Part shown: one piece after another, positions 3,366 to 51,652 of the stretch
Numbering within the stretch: position 1 is the stretch's first letter
Layout: the number at the start of each line of letters is the position of its first letter
DNA from: Callorhinchus milii
Lineage: Eukaryota
Direction: 5' to 3'
NCBI RefSeq assembly: GCF_018977255.1
Contig: NW_024704742.1
Coordinates: 55,058,001 to 55,122,000, forward strand
Length of the DNA stretch: 64,000 nucleotides
The notes under the pieces: model-generated
Seen by the model: the letters and a program-made list of their open reading frames with translations, nothing else
What the model was told of the DNA's origin: nothing
Database searches by the model: none
Position numbers and translations under genes: made by a program

Positions 3366-3927
3366 GGGTCTTGAAGGAGTCAAGGGAGGGGGCGAGGGGG
3401 AGGGAGGGGCGAGCGAGGCGGGGGTAGCCCGCAGGGGGTTAGGAGTTCGCAGAGGTAGGGGGAAGCGAGGCCATGGAGGGCTTTGAAGGTGAGGACCAGG
3501 ATCTTGAACTGTACCCTTTGTGTGATGGGAAGTCAGTGGAGTCGGGCGAGGATGGGGGTAACAGGGTCGCGGAGCCTGGTGCGGGAGAGTTTTGGATGAT
3601 CTGCAGCCTATGGAGGAAGGAGTTGGGGAGGCGACAAGCAGTTTGTCTCTTTGACCGAGCCTTCAGCTCCCCTCTCGACTCTCTTCCTCCTCCTCGCTCC
3701 CTCCCTTCCCTCCCCTCACCCTGACCATTTCCCCCCTCCTCTCTCCCTCCCTTCCCTCCCCTCACCCTGACCATTTCCCCCCTCCTCGCTCCCTCCCTTC
3801 CCTCCCCTCACCCTGACCATTTCCCCCCTGCTCGGGTCATGACCCAACTGTGCAGCGCCTTGGGACGTCCTCCTGACGTGAAAGGCGCTCTATAAATGGA
3901 ATCTTGTTGTTGTTGTTGTTGTTGTTT
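3366..3927. mobile_element. L2 3' end (+, 3650-3927, with ~44-bp tandem 3' UTR units and (TTG)n tail) joined to an inverted upstream L2 piece (-, 3366-3640)
   Basis: The + part is nearly identical to the 3' end of the young L2 at 15747-16030. Confidence 0.88.
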
Positions 3928-5080: not shown

Positions 5081-5459
5081 ACGCTGACAACACGCCGCCA
5101 GATACGCTCACATCACTGGCGGCCGCTGCTCGAGCTTTGCCTTGAAACCCACTGCCGTCCGCGCCGCGGATCTGCCTGAGCGCTGCCGGCGGCTCACAGC
5201 TGCCCTCCCCCTCCGCCTCCCCCTCCCCCGCCCCCGCCCCGAGCCTCGGCCGCGGGCACCGTTTTTTTTCGCGTACAAGAAAGCCGCTGCGTGAGCCACC
5301 AGAGTGCGCATGCTCGGAGCCGGCCATGTTGAGTGCGGCGACACGCAGGCGCAGTGCGGCCCCTCCCGGGCCCTCAGTGGGACAGTGAGAAGCGGTTCAG
5401 ATTGTCGCCGAGGAACGGCAGAGCAGCCCGTGACATCACAGCGCCGCGCACGCGCACTC

Positions 5460-5882
5460 GCCACTGCCACCCACCAATGTAACCGCCACTGTTACTGCCA
5501 CCGCCACTGCCACTGCCACCACCAATGCCACCGCCACTGCCACCGCCACTGCCACCCACCACTGCCTCCCACCAATATCAATGCCACTGCCACCGCCACT
5601 GCCACCTGCCAATGCCACCGCCACTGCCACCGCCACTGCCACCAGCCCACACCGGCCACTGCCACCTTCTACTGCCACCAGCCCACACGCCACTAGCCAC
5701 GCGCCACTGCCACCAGCCCACACCGGCCACTGCTACCAGCCCACACCGGCCATTGCCACCAGCCACTGCCACCCACCATTGCCACCAGCCCACACCGACT
5801 GCTGCCACTGGCCACTGCTACCAGCCCACACCAGCCACTGCCACCGGCCACTGCCACCGGCCACTGCCACCAGCCCACACCG
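5460..5882. repeat. Compound tandem repeat: (GCCACY)n hexamers grading into a ~23-bp unit GCCACCAGCCCACACCGGCCACT
   Basis: Read directly. It explains the low-complexity ORFs (HCHRHCH, PPPLPPP, VAVAVA, GGGS) in all frames. Confidence 0.92.
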
Positions 5883-5954
5883 GAGAAAATGCACCGGTCA
5901 CAGACAGTCAGACAATGATATTACACCAATTACAGTCAATGTTCAACCACCGTC

Positions 5955-15746: not shown

Positions 15747-18483
15747 AACAACAAGACAACAACAAGATTCCATTTATAGAGCGCCTTTCACGTCAGGAGG
15801 ACGTCCCAAGGCGCTGCATGACCCCTTTGTCAGGGTGAGGGGAGGGAAGGGAGGGAGAGAGGAGGGGGGAAATTTTGGGTCATGACCCGAGCAGGGGGGA
15901 AATGGTCAGGGTGAGGGGAGGGAAGGGAGGGAGAGAGGAGGGGGAAATGGTCAGGGTGAGGGGAGGGAAGGGAGGGAGCGAGGAGGAGGAAGAGAGTCGA
16001 GAGGGGAGCTGAAGGCACGGTCAAAGAGAAAGGTTTTGAGACCGGCCTTGAAGGAGGAAAGGGAGGAAGCAAGGCGAAGGCACTGGGGGATGGAGTTCCA
16101 GAGCCTCGGGGCTGAGAGGCTGAAGGCCCGACCACCGATAGTAGGGCGGTTGGGGCGGGGGACGTGGAGCAGACCGGAGCCAGAGGAACGGAGGGTACGG
16201 GCAGGTAGGTAGGGGGATAGTAGGTTGGAGAGGTAGGAGGGAGCAAGGCCGTGAATGGCCTTGTAGGTGAGGATGAGGATCTTGAAATCAATCCTCTGGG
16301 GGATGGGGAGCCAGTGGAGGCGAGCGAGGGTGGGAGTGATGTGGTCCCGAAGCCTGGTGCGGGACAGTACACGAGCTGCAGAGTTCTGAATGACCTGCAG
16401 CTTGTGGAGGGAGGTGGCGGGAAGGCCGGCGAGGAGAGAGTTCCCATAGTCCAGCCTTGAGGTGACAAAGGCGTGAACCAGGGTTTCAGCAGCGTGAGGG
16501 GTGAGGTAGTGCCGTAATCTGGCGATATTCCGGAGGTGATGGAAGGCGGTGCCAGTTGTGGTGCGGATGTGAGGGAGAAAGGACAGCTCAGGGTCGAACA
16601 AAACGCCGAGGTTCCTGACTGGCTTTGAGAGGTGGAGAGTGCAGCCTTGGATGCTGATGGTGTCAGCGCCTGAGGTGCGGAGGCGCTGACGTGAGCCAAT
16701 CAGGAGGGCCTCGGTTTTTCGCACGTTGAGCTGAAGAAAGTTGTCTCTCGTCCAGGACTCGATGTCGGACAGGCAGGCTGTCAGGACATCGGTGGTCGTG
16801 GAGTTGAGAGTAGAGGAGGAAAGGTAGAGTTGGGTGTCATCCGCATACATGTGGAAGTTAACCCCATGTTTGCGGATGATGTCACCGAGGGGGAGCATAT
16901 AGAGGGTGAAGAGGAGGGGACCGAGGACAGAGCCCTGAGGGACACCACATGAGACAGTACGGGGGGTGGAGGAGAAGCCATTCGTTGAGACGAAGTGAAG
17001 ACGGTGGGAAAGGTAAGAGCTAAACCATTCAAGGACAGTGCCTTGAAGGTTGAGGTGGGAGGACAAGCGGTGGAGTAGGATAGCGTGGTCGACCGTATCG
17101 AATGCTGCCGATAGGTCGAGGAGGACGAGGAGACAGAGGGAGCCCTGGTCACAGATAGTCAGGATATCATTGGTGACCTTGACCAGGGCAGTTTCTGTGC
17201 TATGAGCAGCACGGAAACCTGACTGAAGGGGTTCAAAAAGAGAATGGGTGGAGAGGAAAGAGCGCAGTTGGGAGGCGACAACTCTTTCCAAGACCTTGGA
17301 GAGAAAGGGGAGGTTGGAGATGGGCCGGTAGCTTGATAGCTGCGACGCATCAAGGGAGGGTTTTTTCAGGGTGGGCGTGATGATGGCAGTTTTTAATGGA
17401 ATGGGGACAGAGCCAGAGGAGAGGGACAGGTTTATGATGTCAGTGATATGTGGGGCAAGAAAATGGAGCTGGGAGATAAGGAGTGGAGTGGGGATGGGGT
17501 CAAGGGAGCAGGTGGTTGGTTTTAGGGATAGGATGAGTTCAGTGACAGAGGGTGGGGAAACGGGTACGAAGGTGTGTAGGGGAGGATGGGTAGGAGTCGG
17601 AGTGTGGGAGGGAAGGGGTGGGTGGTGGGTGGAAGTTGGAGGGGAAGTGACCGCGGAGCGGATTCCCTTGATCTTGGATTCAAGGAAATCCAGCATCTCC
17701 TCGCAGTGAAGGTTGGAGGAGATGACCTGCGCGGGGTGGCGGGGGGGACGGAGGAGTCGGGATGTGGTGGAAAACAGTAGCCTGGGGTTGTTCTTCGCCT
17801 CCAGGATTATCCTGGAGTAGAAGGACGACTTGGCCGAGGCTAGAGTGGAGCGGTAAATTTTGAGGAGGTCCAGCCAGATTTGTCGGTGGACCGTTAAGCC
17901 GGATTTGACAAAGGTGCGCTCAGCAGCCCGCACCTGGCATTTCAGTGAGCGGAGGTGGGTGGTGTACCAGGGGGAGGAGCGGGAGTAGGAGACAGTGCGG
18001 GAAGTGATGGGGGCAAGAGTATCGAGTGTGGAGGAGAGGATATTGTGGAGGAGGGAGAGAGGAGAAGAGGGGTCGGTGAGGGTTGAAGGCCAGAGGGAGA
18101 GGAGTTCAGAGGACTCCAAGGCATCGGTTAGGGATTGTGGGGGTAACTTCTTCCAAGGGCGGTAGAAGATGGTGGTGGGTCTGGTGGAGGTGGGGAGGGG
18201 GGTGGAGGTGGTGAAGGAGATGAAGTAGTGGTCGGAGATGGCCTTGTCGGTAATAGTGACATCCGAGACACTGAGGCCCCGGGTGATCACCAAATCGAGT
18301 GGGTGGCCGTGACTGTGAGTGGGGGAGTTTATGTGTAGGGAAAGGTTGAGTGAGGAGAGCAGGGAAGAGAAGTCTGTGGAGATGGAGCAGGAGGGGGTGA
18401 AGTGTAGGTTAAAGTCGCCCAGGATGATGAGGCGATCAGAGGAGAGGCAAAGAGATGTGAGGAGTGTTGAAATGTCAGAGATA
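15747..18483 (-). mobile_element. Young 5'-truncated L2-clade LINE in PDGFRL intron 3 (endonuclease C-terminus, full RT, 3' UTR repeats, (TTG)n-type tail)
   Basis: Uninterrupted ORF2 from about 18483 to 15951 with [26 protein letters not shown] and [15 protein letters not shown]. Terminal stem-loop and microsatellite tail. Confidence 0.96.
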
Positions 18484-20323: not shown

Positions 20324-21654
20324 GTAAGTCCTTCATGTTTGATTTTTAATCAATTCACTAAATAACTTTCTCCCTTATTTGTAAACTGATTGGAATATAT
20401 CAGTAGATTAAAGAGGTGTCCCCATATTTTTCTCAAAATATGAGAATAAAAAGAAAAACTATAGCAATGTCAAACAATTGTTCAGTTATTACTGTCGGCT
20501 GTAATGAATATTTAACCAACTAAAACTACATAGCTTGCCATTGAAAGCACTGTTTGGCAAACTTCTTGCTGCTTGACCAGCTAGGACCACCTTACCCATT
20601 AAAGCTTTGGCTTGCAGGGTTAAGAGCTGAGTGGGAAGACGTCCTGCCACCAGTAACTGATCTGCCTCTCCAAATCCTGCTGACAAATCCTCCCGACGTG
20701 AAAGGCACTATACAAATGTAATCTTTTTATAATCTTGTTGTTGTTGACAAGCCAGGCTGTGGCTGGTCTGTCATCAGTAATGCCCTGGAGTACGATGGAT
20801 CCACCTGGCTCAGGAGCCCAGATCACCACAGAGGATTGACTCAATTCTAACATTCCATTGGCGAGAACGTTAACCTGCAGCCAGTTCAGATCCAAGGAGA
20901 AACCCCACTTACCTCTCCCCCAAGGAAGATATCAGCCACTGAGGAACACAAGGCACTGAAGCAAACCGTTCCAAAAAACGTACATCTGGAAGCTTGTGCA
21001 TGCAGTTGTTTTAAAGTCAATACAAGACAGCCATTGTAAAAACTGCCCTATGATTTAAATAGACAGTTACAACAGTGATGGAAGCATTGGAAAACTTCTT
21101 GAGGGCCAGTTACGATGAGAAGGGGTCTCCTTGAAGCTGAACTGGCTCCAAGGTGACATGCCTGGCAACTGAATATTGGAATCGAGCCAGCCCTCTTCAG
21201 CAGTCTCAGTAGTCCAGTTCCTGAGCCAGGCGGATCCCTAGTATTCCAGGGTACTGCTGATGACAGCACAGTCAGCCTGGCTCATCAGCAGAACCTGGAG
21301 GGCAGACCAGTCACTGGGGTCAGGAACTCATCGCACTCATCTCCTGTTAACCCTGCAAGCCAAAGCCCTAATGGGTAGAGTGGTCCTAGCTGGACAAGCA
21401 GTGGGGAAGCTTGCCAAATTACGATATCAATGGCAAGTTATGCGGGCTGAGCTGGTTAGACTCCAGCAGTACCCCAACGCACATTCTGGGGCCCCGAAGC
21501 CTTGGCTCTTGCCAGCTTGTGCCTAATACTTTCCGGAATTGGGTAAGCAAGATGTATCCCTTCAGGGAGAGAGTTTGCATTCCAACATCATATCTATGGA
21601 ATTTGCATGCGTAGGAGGGATGCATGGAAATCTCAACTTGGTTTGGATACTCTT

Positions 21655-21966
21655 AATAATAATCCTTGCATTTGAAATCGCGCTTTTCACGTCGGGAGGA
21701 CATCCCAAAGCGCTTCACAGAACACACTGTAAAGTGAATTGACTGTATACTTGTGGGCGAACGGGGCAGCCAATTGCGCACAACAATGTCCCACAAACAG
21801 TCATATGGATTGAAAATGACCAATTTATTACTGTTTTTGTTTTTGGAGGGATTATTATTAGGCGTGTGGAGTAAGGAAACTTGCCCAAGGTTTCGCCCTG
21901 CCTGGCATTGAACTCAGGTCTCTCACTTGCAAAGCGCGTGCTCTAACCACTGAGCTACAGGACTCC
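21655..21966 (-). mobile_element. tRNA-derived SINE (short form)
   Basis: Same family. Tail loop matches the L2 tail. Confidence 0.9.
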
Positions 21967-35112: not shown

Positions 35113-35433
35113 GGAGTCCTGTAGCTCAGTGGTTAGAGCACTCGCCTCGCAAGCGAGAGACCTGGGTTCGATTACCAGCAGGGCAAAACCTTGGGCAAGT
35201 TTCCTTGCTCCACACTCCTGATAATAATCCCTCAAGAAAAAAACACCATAAAAATTTGGTCACTCAATCCACGACTGTTTGTGGGACATTGCTGTGCACA
35301 ATTGGCTGCCAAGTTCGCCCACAAATATACAGTCAATTCACTTTACAGTGTGTTCTGTGAAGCGCTTCGGGACGTCCTCCCGACGTGAAAAGCGTTATAT
35401 CAAATGCAAGGATTATTATTATTATTATTATTA
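35113..35433 (+). mobile_element. tRNA-derived SINE (short form), young copy
   Basis: GGAGTCCTGTAGCTCAGTGGTTAGAGC...GGTTCGATT...GGGACGTCCTCCCGACGTGAAA...(ATT)n. Confidence 0.92.
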
Positions 35434-37882
35434 ACTGGACGCAGTACTCCAGCTGAGGCCTAACGAGTGTTTTGTATAGATTAACCATAACCTCCCTACT
35501 TTTATACTCTATGCCCCTACTGATAAAGTTCAGTACACCAAATGCCTTTTTTACTGCCTTACCTACCTGCCCCGCTACCTTTAATGATTTGCTTACTTGA
35601 ACACCCAGATCTCTCTGTACGTTCACCCCCCCTTAAGATTGAGCTACCAAGTCTATATTGCCTCCTATCATTCTTCCTACCTAAGTGTATCACCTCACAC
35701 TTATCCACATTGAAATCCATCTGCCACATGTCAGCCCATTCCACCATTCTGTGTATGTCTGCTTGCAGTTGGTTACAGTCCTCCTCACTATTTACTACCC
35801 TACCTAACTTTGTATCATCTGCAAACTTGGAAATAGTGCTCTCTATGCCCAAGTCCAGATCATTAATATATATTAGAAAGAGCAGTGGTCCCAATACCGA
35901 TCCCTGGGGGACACTACTGCACACCTCCTTCCATTTCGAGAAACATCCATTAACCACCACCCTCTGCTTTCTGTCACTCAGCCAGTTCTTAATCCAAACT
36001 GCCACTGTCCCCTTAATACCGTGGGCCTCTAATTTTTGTATTAATCTCTTATGCGGTACTGTGTCAAAAGCCTTTTTGAAATCCATGTAAATAATGTCCA
36101 CCGCATTTCCCTCATCAACCCTCGCAGTCACCTCTTCAAAAANTTCTATTAGATTTGTTAGGCAAGATTTGCCTTTAACAAATCCATGTTGGCTGTCTCT
36201 AATTACCTCATGTTCCTCTAAGTAGAGATTTATTCTGTCCCGGATTATGGTCTCCAGTAGTTTTCCTATTACCGAAGTTAGGCTGACTGGCCTGTAATTT
36301 CCGGGTTTGTCTTTCTGCCCCTTTTTGTAGAGGGGGTAACATTAGCCACTCTCCAGTCTCTTGGCACCACTCCTGTGTCCAATGAAGATTGAAATATAAT
36401 GGCCAAAGCCTCCGCTATTTGAACCCGTATCTCCCACAGCAACCTTGGGTGAAACCCATCTGGTCCTGGTGACTTATCAATTTTGAGCCCAGTCAATCTT
36501 TTCAGAACTTCCTCTCTGTCTATAGTAATCTGATCTATTTCCTCTACCCTCTCATCCAATACTGCGGCATTTGGGGCATCCATTTCCGTTGTGAAGACAG
36601 ATGCAAAGTACTCGTTCAGTACATCAGCCATGCCCTCTGCCTCCACAACAAGATTGCCGTCATTGTCTTTGATTGGCCCCACCCTACCTTTAACTAACCT
36701 TTTTTCCTTTATGTGCTTGTAAAATATTTTAGGATTCCCCTTTATGTTACCCGCTAACCTCTTCTCATGCGATCTTTTTGCCTGTCTTATCACTCCTGCA
36801 TTCTCTATAATGCGCTTTGCTATCCTCAGTATCTTGCGTCTTCCAATCGTCATACGCCGTCTTCTTCTTTTTCATCCTGGACAGAATATCCCTGGTCATC
36901 CAGGCTGGCTTGGTTGTTGCACATTTCCCTTTTGTGGGAATATATCTATTTAGACCTTGAGCTATCATATCTTTGAAGATCTCCCATTGCTCATGAGTTG
37001 TTTTACCTGCTAGTCTTACTTGCCAGTCCACCAACTCTAGGTCCCTTTTTAGCCCATCAAAATTAGCCCTTTTCCAGTCAAGCATTTTCACCCTTGACTG
37101 TACTTTGTCCCTGTTCATGAGTAATCTAAATCTAATAATATTATGGTCATTGTTACCTTGATGCTCCCCTACCGAAACCTGTTCAACCTGACTTATTTCA
37201 TTCCCCAGAACTAGATCCAGCAATGCTTCCTTCCTCGTAGGACTGGAGACATACTGCTCAAGAAAATTTTCCTGTACACAGTCTATGAATCTTTCTCCTG
37301 CCTTGCCCTTAGCGCTGCTATTTTGCCAGTCTATATTGGGATAATTGAAATCCCCCATTAACACAACTCTGTTCGCCTTACATCTATCCGCGATCTGGTT
37401 GCAGATCTGCTCCTCTATCTCCTTCCCGCTGTCTGGTGGTCTATAGTAAACCCCTATCAGTGTAACCACTCCTTTCTTATTGCTTATCTCTAACCAGATG
37501 GATTCTATTGTAGGGCCCTCCAGAGCCTCGTTCCTTTCTACAGCTATAATTGTATCCTTAACCAATATTGCCACCCCTCCTCCTTTTCTTCCTTCTCTAT
37601 CCTTCCTGAACACATTATATCCTGGAATATTTAACTCCCATTCCTGTCCTGGCTTGAGCCATGTCTCGGTTACTGCCACCACATCGTAACCCCCTACGGC
37701 CAGTTGAACCTGCAGCTCATCAACCTTATTCCCTAAGCTACGTGCATTTAGGTACATACATTTGAGGAAATTGTCCGCTTGTACCTGCTCTACACTTCCC
37801 ACTTGTCTTTTTCCTCTAATCTTCAATCCATTTTATCCTTGGATACTCATCCCCTCTCGACACTAGTTTAAATCCGCCCCTA
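35434..37882 (-). mobile_element. CR1 LINE: end of ORF1, endonuclease and RT of ORF2 (frameshifted), lacking its 3' end
   Basis: [76 protein letters not shown]1-type end GATTTAAACTAG at ~37863-37874. One N at 36143. Confidence 0.95.
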
Positions 37883-47225: not shown

Positions 47226-47345
47226 CAGCTTTTCCATCTTCATCAACTTCTTTTCCTGTTCATGTATTTTCTCATTTCTGATCTCCAGCACTGCCTTCAA
47301 ACTTTCCAGTTCTTGCTCGAGATAAAGGCTCTGGGGTGAAATTTT
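47226..47345 (-). CDS. MTUS1: MTUS1 exon ([40 protein letters not shown])
   Basis: 120 nt. Contains the hallmark MTUS1/MTUS2 [15 protein letters not shown] motif. Confidence 0.96.
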
Positions 47346-47473: not shown

Positions 47474-47903
47474 ACAACAACAAAGTTGCATTTATCACAT
47501 TTATTACATTTCATGTTGGGAGGACGCCAAGGCATTGAGCAGTCAGTATTTTGGACCCGAGCTGGAGATCGGGATTGGGAGGGTGTTTGGCGCGGGGGGG
47601 CGGGGGGGGGGTGATCGAAGGCACAGTTGAAGAGGAGGGTCTTGAAGGAGGCAAGGGAGGGCCGAGGCAGACGGACTGCGGGATGGAGTTCTAGAGGGTG
47701 GGAGCAGAGTGATTGAAGGTCCGTGCGCCAATAGTGGAAATGCAACTAATGTAGAAAAAATATAAAACAATGCACGCCCATCACTGCAATCCTCACCAGG
47801 TTCCAAGGGCTCAGTCTCTGAGCTAATCAACTTCAAAATCCTCACCCTTGCATTCAAATCACTTCATGACGTAGCACCTCCTTAGCTCTCTGATCTCATA
47901 CCC
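47474..47903. mobile_element. L2 3' end (-, 47474-47735) plus an opposite-orientation L2 ORF2 piece (+, ~47772-47903)
   Basis: Tail at 47474. The + piece reads PITAILTR...NFKILTLAFKSLHDVAP..LSDLIPNY. Confidence 0.8.
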
Positions 47904-48051
47904 AACTACAGAAGAAATATCAAGGAGTGATCTAAAAGCTGTCTGAAGAACACCAGACTGAACTTCGAGAGCTTGAAGAAAAGCTTCAGCAGCTCTTCAC
48001 TGCAGAACAGGAGCATCTATAGCAAGCGCTCAATAATGAGCTGAGAAAGCT
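47904..48051 (+). pseudogene. Inverted, decayed copy of part of MTUS1 exon 51438-51652 (two in-frame stops)
   Basis: Matches the reverse complement of 51460-51607 without gaps, 133/148 identical by manual alignment. CAA to TAA and CAA to TAG. Confidence 0.95.
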
Positions 48052-48189
48052 GCCTAGAGTGCTGGTAAATAGCATTGTTAAAGGCTAGAAGCATCAGTAC
48101 AAATTGTAGTTGATCTACAGTTTTTTGCTGTGACCTTTGAAAAACACAATTTTAAAAAATCCCCACTGAATTATATAAAGGGAACTTAC

Positions 48190-48285
48190 TTGATCTTGTT
48201 GCACATGTGTTTTTGTGACCTGTTCCTTAGCTTTGACTTTCTCCTTCAAAGAATTATTTTCCTCATTTAGTTTTGAAATCTGTTC
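48190..48285 (-). CDS. MTUS1: MTUS1 exon (EQISKLNEENNSLKEKVKAKEQVTKTHVQQDQ)
   Basis: 96 nt, ttcag/gtaagt flanked. Confidence 0.9.
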
Positions 48286-48930
48286 CTGAAAAGTACAATT
48301 GAAATTGAACATCCATCTCAAACAAACATTTGGAAGAATCCAATATTCACACAGCAGCTTTCATCCTCCTGCATTCACAATGATACAGCTATTCCTGCCA
48401 ATCTCAGTGTAGAAGACCATCAAGCTGCAGCAACTTGTATGCAGAGGGCAGTTACTAGGCCACCCACACACAGACACCTTGTTTGCTGGGATCTAGGCTG
48501 CATGGTTTCATGGCATTGGACTTCCAATAAGGGCTTCATGAAAGACTGAAGTGCCAGTGGTAACATTTAGGTACAAGTTTCTTCAATACCACTTCATTTG
48601 TTTTTGCTGCTGTCGCTCGCTACTAGCTTGTTAAAGTGCATGTATGACATGGAGAAGGAAAGAAAACATACCACTTCCCTACAGAAAAAGGGAAGTGGCC
48701 CATTGTCCACACTATTTAAAACCGTGAAAGGTTTTAAGATGAGGCGAGTTGCACACCCAAGCTTGTATAACCTAAGAGATGCAATACACTTCTACCGTTT
48801 GTGCTAAATTTAAAACCTGGCATTCAAGTCAAATCTCTTTAGCTTCCAGAACTAATTAAACATATGAAGGAAACCATTATGCAAAATAATTTCTAATCGA
48901 TATATTTGATTACCTCTCAAAATAACTAAC

Positions 48931-49004
48931 CTGTAGTTGTGATTGTGTCTGGTTAAAGGTTTCTTCGAGGGAATGCTTTTCCAGTTCATATGATCTTGTC
49001 AGCT
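48931..49004 (-). CDS. MTUS1: MTUS1 exon (ELTRSYELEKHSLEETFNQTQSQLQ)
   Basis: 74 nt, gtag/gttagt flanked, phase 1 to 0. Confidence 0.9.
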
Positions 49005-50258
49005 CTACAAAAGAACAATGTGAAAGAAAATTTGTAATTTTATAGCACTTTAGATGAAAAGTCTCAACGCATTGCACAATTTCTGTGCCAGTTGAGCTGG
49101 TTTCAAAGAGCTTCACAATAAGATGTCGGATTTGAATTAACCCTGTGTGGCGGATTCACTAGTCCGTTTCCTAAGCCAGGTGGGTCCATAGGACACCACT
49201 GATGACAGACCAGCCAATCTGTCTCATTGGCAGAACTTGGAAAGGCAGACCAGTCATTGGGAGTAGGGATTCTTCCCTCTTCATAAGATTGGTTTGGATT
49301 TAGAAGGCCTTCAGCCCATCTAACCTCAACCCTCCAGGATACCCACCTGTCTTCCCATTACAGCATTAAGATGCTTTTCAAATGTTCAGTGTCCTGGCCC
49401 CAACCACCCTTCCTGGAAACCTGACCCAATCATTTACACTCCGAGTAAAGTAAAACTTCCTGGTATCAGTCCTGAATTTGCCCTTTGCAACTCAAACCAA
49501 TGTCCTCTTTTTCTACTGTGCTTTTGCATACCAAGTATTGACCTGGGTTTACTTATTCAATTCCATTTAAAATGTTATATATCTCTCTGAGGTCCCTCTG
49601 AGTCATCTTCTCTCAAGACTGATGAGCCCTGTCTCATTTTTGCTCATTGCTCATTCCTCTAACACTGAGGATTATCCTTGTTGCTTCCTCTGCGCTTGGC
49701 TTCTGTTAACCCTGCAAGCCAGTGTCAAACATGCCCTGAATGGAAAGCTACATGCTTTTTGCAGGAAGATCCCAACATACACTCTGGGGGCATCCCAAAC
49801 TCTGAGAGCCACCCAATGAATGACCAGCTAATCTGTTGGATTGCTTGTCAGAACATCAGGCAAAACCCGCTTCACTATTAAAAGTGTCATGGGATCCTTA
49901 ATGTCCACCTGAAGAAGCAGCCAGGACTTAATCCAAAATATAGCACCTCTGATGAAAAAGCACTGCCCCAAATTTGCATTGTAATGTCAATCCAGACCGT
50001 GAGCACAAGTTCTGAAGTGGGGCTTCAAGCCACAATGTCTGATCTAGAAAAGAGACTCATCTGACAAAGCCAAATTTGGAATGAATTACAAGGGCTGATT
50101 TGACACCTTTTTATAATTACATTGTTTCATTAAGCAGTATTTCATATTCGTGCTCACATATTTCAATCATCCAATTGTATGACAAAGTATTCCAACTTTC
50201 AGATACATTGTATCCAAATATCTTATTGTCACAAAATCCCTTATTCAGCAGCCATTAC

Positions 50259-50364
50259 CTGCAAGAGACTGTTCATAGTCTTCTGTGAGAGACTCCAATT
50301 TCTTTGTATGACTTGTTATCAGTCCCAATTTATGAGTTTCATGCTTGGAGTTTATATCTTCAAC
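50259..50364 (-). CDS. MTUS1: MTUS1 exon (VEDINSKHETHKLGLITSHTKKLESLTEDYEQSLA)
   Basis: 106 nt, tttag/gtaat flanked, phase 0 to 1. Not in the ORF track. Confidence 0.88.
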
Positions 50365-51437
50365 CTAAATTTGAAAAGAGTTTTTAAGCAGGCAATATGA
50401 AATCTGGTGCTCCAGTGTAATGTAAAATGCAGAATTTTACCAGGAATAATCCATGACTTAAATTAATTACATAATCACTTATATTTTACCATGACCCACT
50501 ATGACTGTGCATTTTATAAGAAGCAATATCATCATGTTTTTTAAAAACAACTACAATGGATTAATAAAACTGCACCTTCCGAGTAGAAATCTCCAAATTT
50601 ATGGGCTAACCAAGCCATGTTTTGCATACTATACCATTATGAGTATTATATCCATAGTCTGCCATGCAAACTCAGAATACTGGACTCTGTAACAGTTCTG
50701 AAACCTTCAAATTAGTATTAATTTCATAGTTTAGCATATTACATTGAAATATAGATTATAAAAGGATTTTATTCTTATAAAAGTGATAGTGAACATAACT
50801 GGTCGTTCACCACCCCCGATGGCAACCCCTGATGGCATAGGTTATTTGCCTCTAATTAAAGCATCATAGTAAACTACATTTGGGGTCAATAAGAGGGCAT
50901 TACTAATGTAGGATCCTCACTTTAATCTACAATTTAAAACATCATCATAAATGAAGATAAAGTCTCCATCAGCACTGATACTGATAGTGGCCTCTCGATG
51001 GCAGAGGACTCCAGTGAGCAGATCTGACTGCCTGAGAAAGGCAAAGTAGGGAAGAAAATGAAATTTTCGACCGCACTCATAAAACCACCATAACAGACAA
51101 TGTGGTATCAGAGTAAAGGGCAAATGAGCAGAGCAAGTATGGTGCCCATCTAATAAGACAATATAACAATTGTCTCACTCTTATATAGACAATACACTTA
51201 GGCACTGTATATAAAAAATATCCTACCAGGGAGTGAGGCTTCACCTCAATTGTATAAAAGATGATCCAAAGCAATGGTGTGGCCTTTAAGTAGCGGGCAA
51301 CCAAACATTTACACAAGACCAGGTAGGTCCGTGTTCAATCGGTACTGTGCTTTCAGTTTTTTCTTGATTCAGTATTTCTTGATCTATGGCATAAATTTAT
51401 TTAGTTGGCCAACAACCTCTGATCTGAAGGTACGTAC

Positions 51438-51652
51438 CTGCTCCTGCCATTGTGTTTGTAGCTTTCCCAGGTCATCATTGAGTACTTGTTGCAGCCGCTC
51501 CTGTTCTGCAGTGAAGAGCTGCTGAAGCCTTTCTTCAAGCTCTCGAAGTTCAGTCTGGTGTTCTTCAGACAGCTTTTGAATCACTCCTTGATAATTCTTC
51601 TCTAGTTCTTCTCTTTCCCTATCCAATTTATCACAAGTCTGCCTTCTTGTTT
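51438..51652 (-). CDS. MTUS1: MTUS1 exon (coiled coil, ...DREREELEKNYQGVIQKLSEEHQTELRELEERLQQLF...WQEQ)
   Basis: 215 nt, AG/GT flanked, phase 1 to 0. Confidence 0.93.

Follow-up and report, generated by a model that had tools for sequence, protein, structure and literature searches.

An old inverted copy of part of an MTUS1 coding exon in the elephant shark, probably near-neutral debris with a cryptic 3' splice site

The window analyzed here is a stretch of 64,000 nucleotides of the Callorhinchus milii genome in which MTUS1 lies on the minus strand; the earlier identification of the gene holds, the exon being 100% identical to Callorhinchus milii proteins named MTUS1 homolog. The features discussed below, with the evidence for each and with two relatives called organisms B and C, are:

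51438 to 51652, minus strand: source MTUS1 coding exon, 215 nt, whose copied part is 51460-51607 (protein identity, RNA contigs)
50259 to 50364, minus strand: first exon in the loop between exon and copy, 106 nt (AG/GT ends, RNA contigs)
48931 to 49004, minus strand: second loop exon, 74 nt (AG/GT ends, RNA contigs)
48190 to 48285, minus strand: third loop exon, 96 nt, with a donor at 48190 joined to 47345 (main form) or 47905 (isoform X2) (AG/GT ends, RNA contigs)
47904 to 48051, plus strand, antisense to the gene: inverted MTUS1 exon copy, 148 nt (repeat search, comparison, genome search)
47906 to 47928, minus strand: cryptic 3' splice site in the copy, a pyrimidine tract (15 of 20 letters) with AG at 47907-47906 (sequence)
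47882 to 47905, minus strand: coding part of the isoform X2 alternative exon, LGMRSES and then TAA (XP_042198174.1)
47764 to 47903, plus strand: older LINE fragment adjoining the copy, common to organisms B and C and antisense in the alternative exon (DNA matches to the family)
47475 to 47752, minus strand: younger LINE 3' end, missing in organisms B and C (joints of 47474 to 47753/47765, tblastn)
47500 to 47505, minus strand: AATAAA, which might serve the alternative last exon as a poly(A) signal (sequence)
47226 to 47345, minus strand: canonical next exon, whose acceptor has 12 of 20 pyrimidines and is weaker by that count than the cryptic one (RNA contigs)

The inverted copy described in an earlier note on this DNA is real: direct comparison aligns 47904-48051 with 51460-51607 without gaps at 133 of 148 positions, and a repeat search returned the same two arms (148 nt each, 90% complementary, separated by 3408 nt). 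Searching the genome with the exon gave two matches among two candidates, the exon itself and the copy, the latter well beyond chance (E=1.4e-49); the stretch 48045-48189 matches only itself. The copy carries the two nonsense changes reported before (TAA at 47933-47935 and TAG at 48020-48022) and, in the Callorhinchus milii assembly, lies there without either splice site of its source exon. In the pre-mRNA the 15 differences become seven G-U pairs, two A-C, two C-A, and four other mismatches, as had been counted, with the A-C adenosines of the exon at 51489 and 51483. The duplex was said to span most of the exon, and 148 nt can indeed pair, more exactly 69% of its length. Folding predicts -244.9 kcal/mol for this duplex against -58.8 +/- 6.3 for 100 shuffles. 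The three exons that had been placed in the loop have AG/GT ends, are all joined in RNA contigs, and total 276 nt, in frame. An assembly artefact, the caveat attached to the first description, is countered by four further samples from one study, which contain 0.69-0.77 of the sampled words of 47480-48300, and the 47904 junction is spanned by a 225-nt contig of RNA assembly X5 with one other letter; no contig among those listed spans the 48051 junction. The comparison covered 4 of 24 sequencing runs, 41 of 414 letter differences, and 15 of 123 joints.

The exon is rich in purines; read in reverse, the copy is therefore rich in pyrimidines and comes with a 3' splice site already in place. The resulting acceptor is canonical, its tract followed by TAG at 47908-47906, all within the copy. 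Strict acceptor-like sites occur antisense in five of seven MTUS1 exons and sense in none, and the one at 47905 is the first such site past the 48190 donor. NCBI isoform X2 (XP_042198174.1) splices from 48190 to 47905 into the LINE fragment and loses 145 residues; its ending, LGMRSES and a stop, is encoded once in the window, right behind the AG within the copy, and is found in one of five elephant-shark proteins and none of 17 shark and ray proteins. The suggestion that the copy alters splicing thus stands in part: the copy touches splicing as the source of a 3' splice site for X2, not through duplex-driven skipping. The splice signal at the copy's edge had been overlooked in the earlier note. 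Downstream, the alternative exon has two candidate ends in donor-like motifs near 47847 and 47798, and the AATAAA lies about 380 nt beyond the X2 stop, within an insertion that organisms B and C lack. The 48190-47905 junction is missing from both of two RNA assemblies, so X2 may be minor, tissue-restricted, or an annotation slip. The X5 contig across the alternative exon runs unspliced through 47905 at a depth of 5.8, like other intron contigs (3.2-9.7). An apparent alternative-exon signal in the word shares of runs X7-X11 (0.14-0.16 vs 0.11) was discarded because LINE words could cause it. X2, known as an annotated database model, would be a shortened and probably rare MTUS1.

On balance we favor, with somewhat better than even confidence, an old local inverted duplication that is now near-neutral debris with a leaky cryptic exon, and not an editing device. 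A DNA-level event, through template switching or break repair, would have inserted a piece of the MTUS1 exon in a LINE fragment lying 3.4 kb downstream, and probably predates the separation of the elephant-shark line from organisms B and C; exon and copy would then have drifted apart with occasional gene conversion, and the donor at 48190 could be joined to the cryptic site, so that splicing runs into the antisense LINE fragment and yields the truncated MTUS1 of the X2 model. Neutral debris had been the fallback of the first description, and it fits best: both RNA assemblies contain a single unbroken, unedited mRNA, and the copy has decayed, with two stops among other changes.

The arrangement is that of a templated insertion, an inverted copy of a nearby template with two genome matches 3408 nt apart, but the copy adjoins a LINE fragment and in Callorhinchus milii consists of nothing but exon sequence, so that the patch might instead have been reverse-transcribed from MTUS1 RNA during LINE insertion. 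We regard this as extremely improbable. The two LINE pieces are separate insertions, organisms B and C having one and lacking the other, and the copy shows no continuation into the exon that follows (1897 of 2000 shuffles reach its score); nor was there any signal of extension to the donor or next exon in further comparisons (220/500, 738/1000, and 772/2000 shuffles), and at the protein level the best of 18 sequences reached 14/500. The copy has no exon-exon junction and no tail, and the repeat in B appears to include 27 nt of intron. A single 5'-inverted LINE insertion bringing the exon patch along and leaving a target-site duplication of 5 nt was rejected because B and C keep the plus-strand piece and lack the minus-strand piece; the duplication fell with it. 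The older fragment, which we take to be L2-like, belongs to the family according to DNA matches, while tblastn to the LINE ORF links the younger piece and not the older. LINE copies suggest at most one to three shared bases at 47904, and no pre-insertion allele was seen. Pfam gave no family for proteins P0122 and P0002; PF27558 is annotated for P0001 and not for P0002. As to when the duplication happened, in both relatives depth is zero over the bin of the copy itself (47920-48073). We at first read this as absence of the copy and withdrew that reading after finding doubled or extra exon depth; contigs from the copy may have been placed on the better-fitting exon instead. In organism B most of the exon is covered by one contig alone, which has a length of 198 nt and a depth of 124.1, 2.09 times single copy, and is collinear with 51411-51608, including the donor and stopping where the copy stops (51607); in organism C the exon bin has about 106-112 nt of extra single-copy depth. 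This read depth, which leaves place and orientation unobserved, suggests that there is a second copy in both relatives too, one that in B is almost identical to the exon along about 198 nt. An origin confined to the elephant-shark line, with unrelated duplicates or effects of assembly behind the depth in B and C, and chance plus a fast-evolving exon end behind the uneven divergence, is still a rival, and one we consider unlikely. It draws on the empty bin, on the lack of a joint across the site among the 15 joints listed of 123, on exon-side changes concentrated in the variable 3' part, and on the chance of at most one change in 81 nt at 6% copy-side decay (P=0.04). It sits poorly, however, with the extra depth in both relatives, with a collapsed repeat in B that ends within a few bases of the copy's end, with a flanking contig in B that stops near the copy junction (collinear end 47899), and with the age of the copy itself. 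The copy is old, as it keeps four ancestral residues where the exon has changed: among shark and ray proteins, the copy's Q is found in 13 of 17 and the exon's E in none, K in 13 and N in none, H in 15 and R in none, and N in 10 and D in one. Against this set (17 protein sequences from 16 species, distant elasmobranchs and not chimaera DNA), five of the 15 nucleotide differences fall on the exon side, three on the copy side (the two stops and an E where 15 of 17 have D), one leans to the copy side, and six are unpolarized; no chimaera protein fragment for closer polarization was found among 60 matches or the 120 listed of 255. The exon-copy divergence of 10% fits the 11-13% between Callorhinchus milii introns and organisms B and C. 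An 81-nt core (copy positions 31-111) has one mismatch, at position 79, a clustering with P=0.0005 for a window with at most one mismatch under uniform placement, and the identity in B over 149-198 nt has a probability of 1e-4 or less under neutral decay. Core and B copy together point to a duplication of DNA that is ancient and whose two arms have stayed similar through occasional gene conversion, and from these sequences we infer that exon and copy have been partly re-homogenized, although no single recent conversion tract spans the core, since position 79 differs. Selection for pairing, instead of conversion, could also lie behind the core.

Two possible uses of the copy have to be weighed. 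The earlier note proposed that the copy is an editing-complementary sequence (ECS) whose duplex directs ADAR to recode the MTUS1 coiled coil. Low-level, scattered editing is plausible in a duplex of such length, and 36 of the 53 adenosines in the paired exon part would recode if edited; moreover, exonic editing sites pair as a rule with an intronic ECS (PMC1920255). But the exon has no other letters in either RNA assembly, from two studies, which leaves the proposal unsupported and, in our judgment, very unlikely. X5 and X8 are assumed to be RNA, both containing spliced mRNA contigs, and as assembly contigs drop rare variants and the tissue is unstated, zero edited letters means no majority editing. 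Each A-C site falls on the third base of a codon (CAA, GTA), where editing would be silent, and the only UAG-context adenosine in the paired part is synonymous as well; the imperfections of the duplex thus do not focus editing on a recoding adenosine. The G-U direction, seen in 7 of 11 transitions (P=0.27), is a chance excess. Nor is conservation of the exon raised, with 12 of 149 differences to organism B against 11-13% in introns, whereas described ECS sites show raised conservation (PMC4053966). Exon skipping fared no better: neither assembly contains a skipped or back-spliced form, the main mRNA is one normally spliced form in both, and calculation from depth likewise allows for no assembled variant of the skipped, back-spliced, or edited kind in either. 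The second use would be a switch in which exon-copy pairing hides the cryptic acceptor and gives full-length MTUS1, loss or ADAR-weakening of pairing gives a truncated polyadenylated isoform, and conversion or selection keeps the pairing. A two-strand fold is predicted to pair 21 of the 23 nt of tract and AG and to gain -152 kcal/mol relative to folding each strand alone, removal of the upstream introns leaves 436 nt between the arms, an annotated isoform uses the site, an AATAAA follows, and the copy seems retained, and homogenized in B. We nevertheless find such a switch distinctly improbable, with the junction unassembled, the alternative exon at intron-like depth, and the AATAAA within sequence that B and C lack; the tract is mostly paired also in the copy folded alone (mean unpaired 0.31), and the duplex over the acceptor has four mismatches in 30 nt, not the best-kept part. 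Donor pairing in the fold (8/10) was set aside, since in Callorhinchus milii the copy stops short of the donor. The strongest form of the idea, a self-made switch kept for more than 170 million years, with recurrent conversion matching the arms and duplex formation choosing the isoform, is about as improbable.

Were X2 real and regulated, it would lose part of the C-terminal region common to all human ATIP isoforms, which serves dimerization and AT2-receptor binding (PMC8147298), if that region is assumed to map to the 145 residues. The locus would then also offer a small, self-contained system in which to study how RNA structure conceals a splice site. A true switch would let ADAR, transcription speed, or temperature tune full-length MTUS1 against a form without the last 145 coiled-coil residues, and would mean that new last exons with built-in regulation arise quite generally from purine-rich exons copied in inverted orientation. 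Even as debris only, the copy is a dated example of local inverted duplications seeding cryptic splice sites and a molecular fossil with four ancestral residues of a fast-changing exon.

Loop-out exon skipping by inverted repeats reportedly occurs with Alu duplexes (PMC13019944), and as there a long duplex would enclose whole exons; unlike there, one arm is an exon itself, and no skip or back-splice contig appears in the two RNA assemblies. The ECSs of the GRIA2 Q/R and R/G sites, as far as PMC1920255 and PMC4053966 describe them, are likewise intronic stretches complementary to a coding exon of the same pre-mRNA; the MTUS1 duplex differs in its silent mismatch adenosines, unedited RNA, and unraised conservation, and in being long and near-perfect with arms three exons apart. 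In the accessible literature, subscription journals lying outside its scope, we found no paper on MTUS1 with Callorhinchus or on such an inverted exon copy. Pseudoexons and terminal pseudoexons through intragenic inversion are a class set out by Dhir and Buratti 2010 (cited in PMC8819188), and here too reversed own-gene sequence supplies a new splice site and possibly a truncating terminal exon; those inversions, as presented there, are recent and pathogenic, whereas in MTUS1 the copy is extra, the gene intact, and the event of old date; pairing between the new acceptor and its exon of origin is also possible. In the exonization of antisense SINEs, a poly(A) read backwards becomes the pyrimidine tract (PMC2394776); similarly, reversed purine-rich sequence here gives tract and AG, with a retroelement-derived exon body, but it is a coding exon of the gene itself that provides the tract, and the body is an antisense LINE fragment. 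In origin there is a likeness to templated insertions by template switching or MMBIR (PMC8421209; PMC5453318), which likewise are short, inverted, copied from sequence close by, and fixed in the germ line; here, however, at most one to three shared bases are suggested at a junction, and the template is 3.4 kb away, compared with within 100 bp for the tool of PMC8421209.

The inverted copy of an MTUS1 coding exon described in the earlier note is a real feature of the elephant shark genome. A repeat search of the window found its arms, 47904-48051 and 51460-51607, separated by 3408 nt, and direct comparison gave 133 of 148 identical positions without a gap, together with the seven G-U pairs and two A-C mismatches at exon adenosines in the pre-mRNA, and the two stops in the exon's frame, that the note had counted. 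The gene lies on the - strand; the source exon (51438-51652, 215 nt) matches Callorhinchus milii proteins labelled MTUS1 homolog without a difference, and MTUS1 is the name of the best relatives listed by the protein search that bear a clear one. The copy amounts to 69% of the exon in this genome, including neither splice site, and a genome search with the exon matched the exon and the copy only. An assembly artefact, which the note had considered, is contradicted by four other samples, in which the region's words are present at 0.69-0.77, and by a 225-nt contig with one difference that crosses the 47904 junction in X5, one of two RNA assemblies (X5 and X8) from two studies. Elsewhere in the gene, exon 50259-50364 encodes T in the window genome and the homolog protein P0002 vs I in P0001, an allelic or assembly difference.

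Two LINE pieces, presumably L2, lie beside the copy:

47764-47903, + strand, LINE fragment abutting the copy; its best copies elsewhere in the genome match at 74-79%
47475-47752, - strand, 3' end of a younger LINE next to the + strand fragment, with AATAAA on the gene's strand

Insertion of the - strand piece came after the split from the relatives B and C, because their contigs join 47474 to 47753 or 47765, that is, without it; these joins also rule out both pieces as one 5'-inverted insertion. Beside the copy, 48052-48156 is unique in the genome and is not covered by C at 80% likeness; C's contig is apparently several hundred bases longer there, a deletion or replacement.

The copy is old and has probably undergone gene conversion. 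In both B and C the copy's bin has zero depth and the exon extra depth. B has one 198-nt contig on the exon at 2.09x single-copy depth, collinear over 51411-51608 with the donor included, whose end coincides with the copy's end; C has about 110 nt of additional single-copy depth alongside an unbroken exon contig. The simplest reading of these depths, which speak to amount and not to place or orientation, is one ancestral inverted copy that would be present in both relatives, hardly changed from its exon in B and diverged in C, with elephant shark between the two. That the copy is instead specific to the elephant-shark lineage, with the zero depth in its bin set against the extra depth on the exon, is unlikely. 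The identity pattern across species fits, indirectly, occasional gene conversion; a core of 81 nt in the elephant-shark copy has one mismatch (P=0.0005 under uniform placement, P=0.04 counting copy-side decay at 6% only). In the intron that follows the source exon, another B contig, at 51080-51180, also stands at raised depth (104 against about 60), and B's duplicate may exceed 198 nt.

Against 17 shark and ray sequences from 16 species (P0137, a second isoform of one species, was dropped), the 15 differences polarise to the exon in five cases and the copy in three, with one leaning to the copy and six open, and at four codons changed in the exon the copy retains the ancestral residue shared by sharks and rays. 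Since divergence from B and C is 11-13% in introns, and 12 of 149 exon positions differ in B, the 10% exon-copy difference is about what drift would produce in a copy as old as that split. Their divergence suggests that B and C come from other chimaera families; if they belong there, the split would date to about 187 Ma (PMC12952989), and the chimaera crown group is placed, from morphology, at 173 Ma (PMC11521621).

The NCBI isoform X2 (XP_042198174.1, 1245 aa) departs from the normal sequence past exon 48190-48285 and ends in LGMRSES, which the window encodes once, on the - strand from 47905 and followed by TAA; these codons are directly preceded by a pyrimidine tract and TAG, both within the inverted copy. 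The tract has 15 pyrimidines in 20 vs 12 for the true next acceptor, and the cryptic site is the earliest strict acceptor-like site past the donor. The copy holds such a site because MTUS1 exons are purine-rich (57-68% in the seven checked): strict sites occur in five of seven exons read backwards and in none read forwards, and introns contain 15 in 10,556 nt. X2 would be without the last 145 residues, and the AATAAA at 47505-47500 is a candidate terminator of its last exon. Proteins ending as X2 number one of five in elephant shark and none of 17 in sharks and rays; its junction was not found in the contigs of either RNA assembly, and the X5 contig at its alternative exon is unspliced, at a depth as for introns. 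We regard X2 as a database model, and the short isoform is probably rare. The splicing effect that the note had proposed holds in part: the copy supplies the acceptor annotated in X2, but the main mRNA is spliced canonically, with no skip assembled in X5 or X8, and the annotation indicates an effect other than the one proposed and probably minor.

Recoding by editing, the note's other proposal, is not supported. The exon-copy duplex is predicted at -244.9 kcal/mol (about -40 for each arm folded singly). Both A-C adenosines are third positions (CAA, GTA), where editing would be silent, as it would at the sole UAG-context adenosine, and transitions compatible with G-U are 7 of 11 (P=0.27); the pair does not bear the marks of an editing site kept by selection. 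In each RNA assembly the exon, 51460-51607 included, lies in one mRNA contig that matches it letter for letter and has all four canonical joints. In the bins checked (five in X5, six in X8) this contig by itself accounts for the whole depth observed, which leaves no more than about 0.5 of depth for any assembled contig with an edited base, a skipped exon, a back-splice or another junction. Editing at a low level may still occur, in the tissues behind X5 and X8 or in others, since rare variants are lost when reads are assembled into contigs.

Other features of the window
16000-17600, - strand, LINE, probably fairly young since an ORF2 stretch of 533 aa is open
35559-37832, - strand, second LINE type, which we take to be CR1-like, with endonuclease-like and reverse-transcriptase-like frames; contains the window's single N
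58999-58925, - strand, short ATG-initiated frame within the long upstream intron, which reads MGCSSSK from its start and runs 25 codons to a stop; could be an alternative first exon, and no homolog among the fetched proteins begins so
21647-21802 / 35273-35428, inverted pair, 156 nt, 92%, apparently repeat-derived
3646-3735 / 15940-16029, inverted pair, 90 nt, 99%, apparently repeat-derived
5204-5888, degenerate tandem array, GCCAC-rich, with units of 12 nt and 23 nt

The account we favour, with modest confidence, is that template switching or break repair, known as sources of such copies (PMC8421209, PMC5453318), made the inverted copy before the split from B and C; that it was kept in those relatives and later converted with the exon; that its acceptor yields a rare short isoform; and that the whole arrangement is near neutral. 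An origin as a retro-copy seems scarcely credible. Alternatively, exon-copy pairing might act as a switch that hides the cryptic acceptor: a two-strand fold predicts 21 of its 23 nt to be paired, and 436 nt would separate the arms once upstream introns are spliced. We nevertheless think such a switch improbable, and a conserved one slightly more so. That the duplex serves as a recoding editing-complementary sequence (ECS) for ADAR is very improbable.

A search of the literature accessible without subscription found no paper on this locus, nor on inverted duplication and pseudoexon together. The exon-copy pair lacks two tested features of ADAR ECSs (PMC1920255, PMC4053966) and is not placed in that class. 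In its working the copy resembles pseudoexons that arise by intragenic inversion (PMC8819188), and also SINEs exonized in antisense (PMC2394776).
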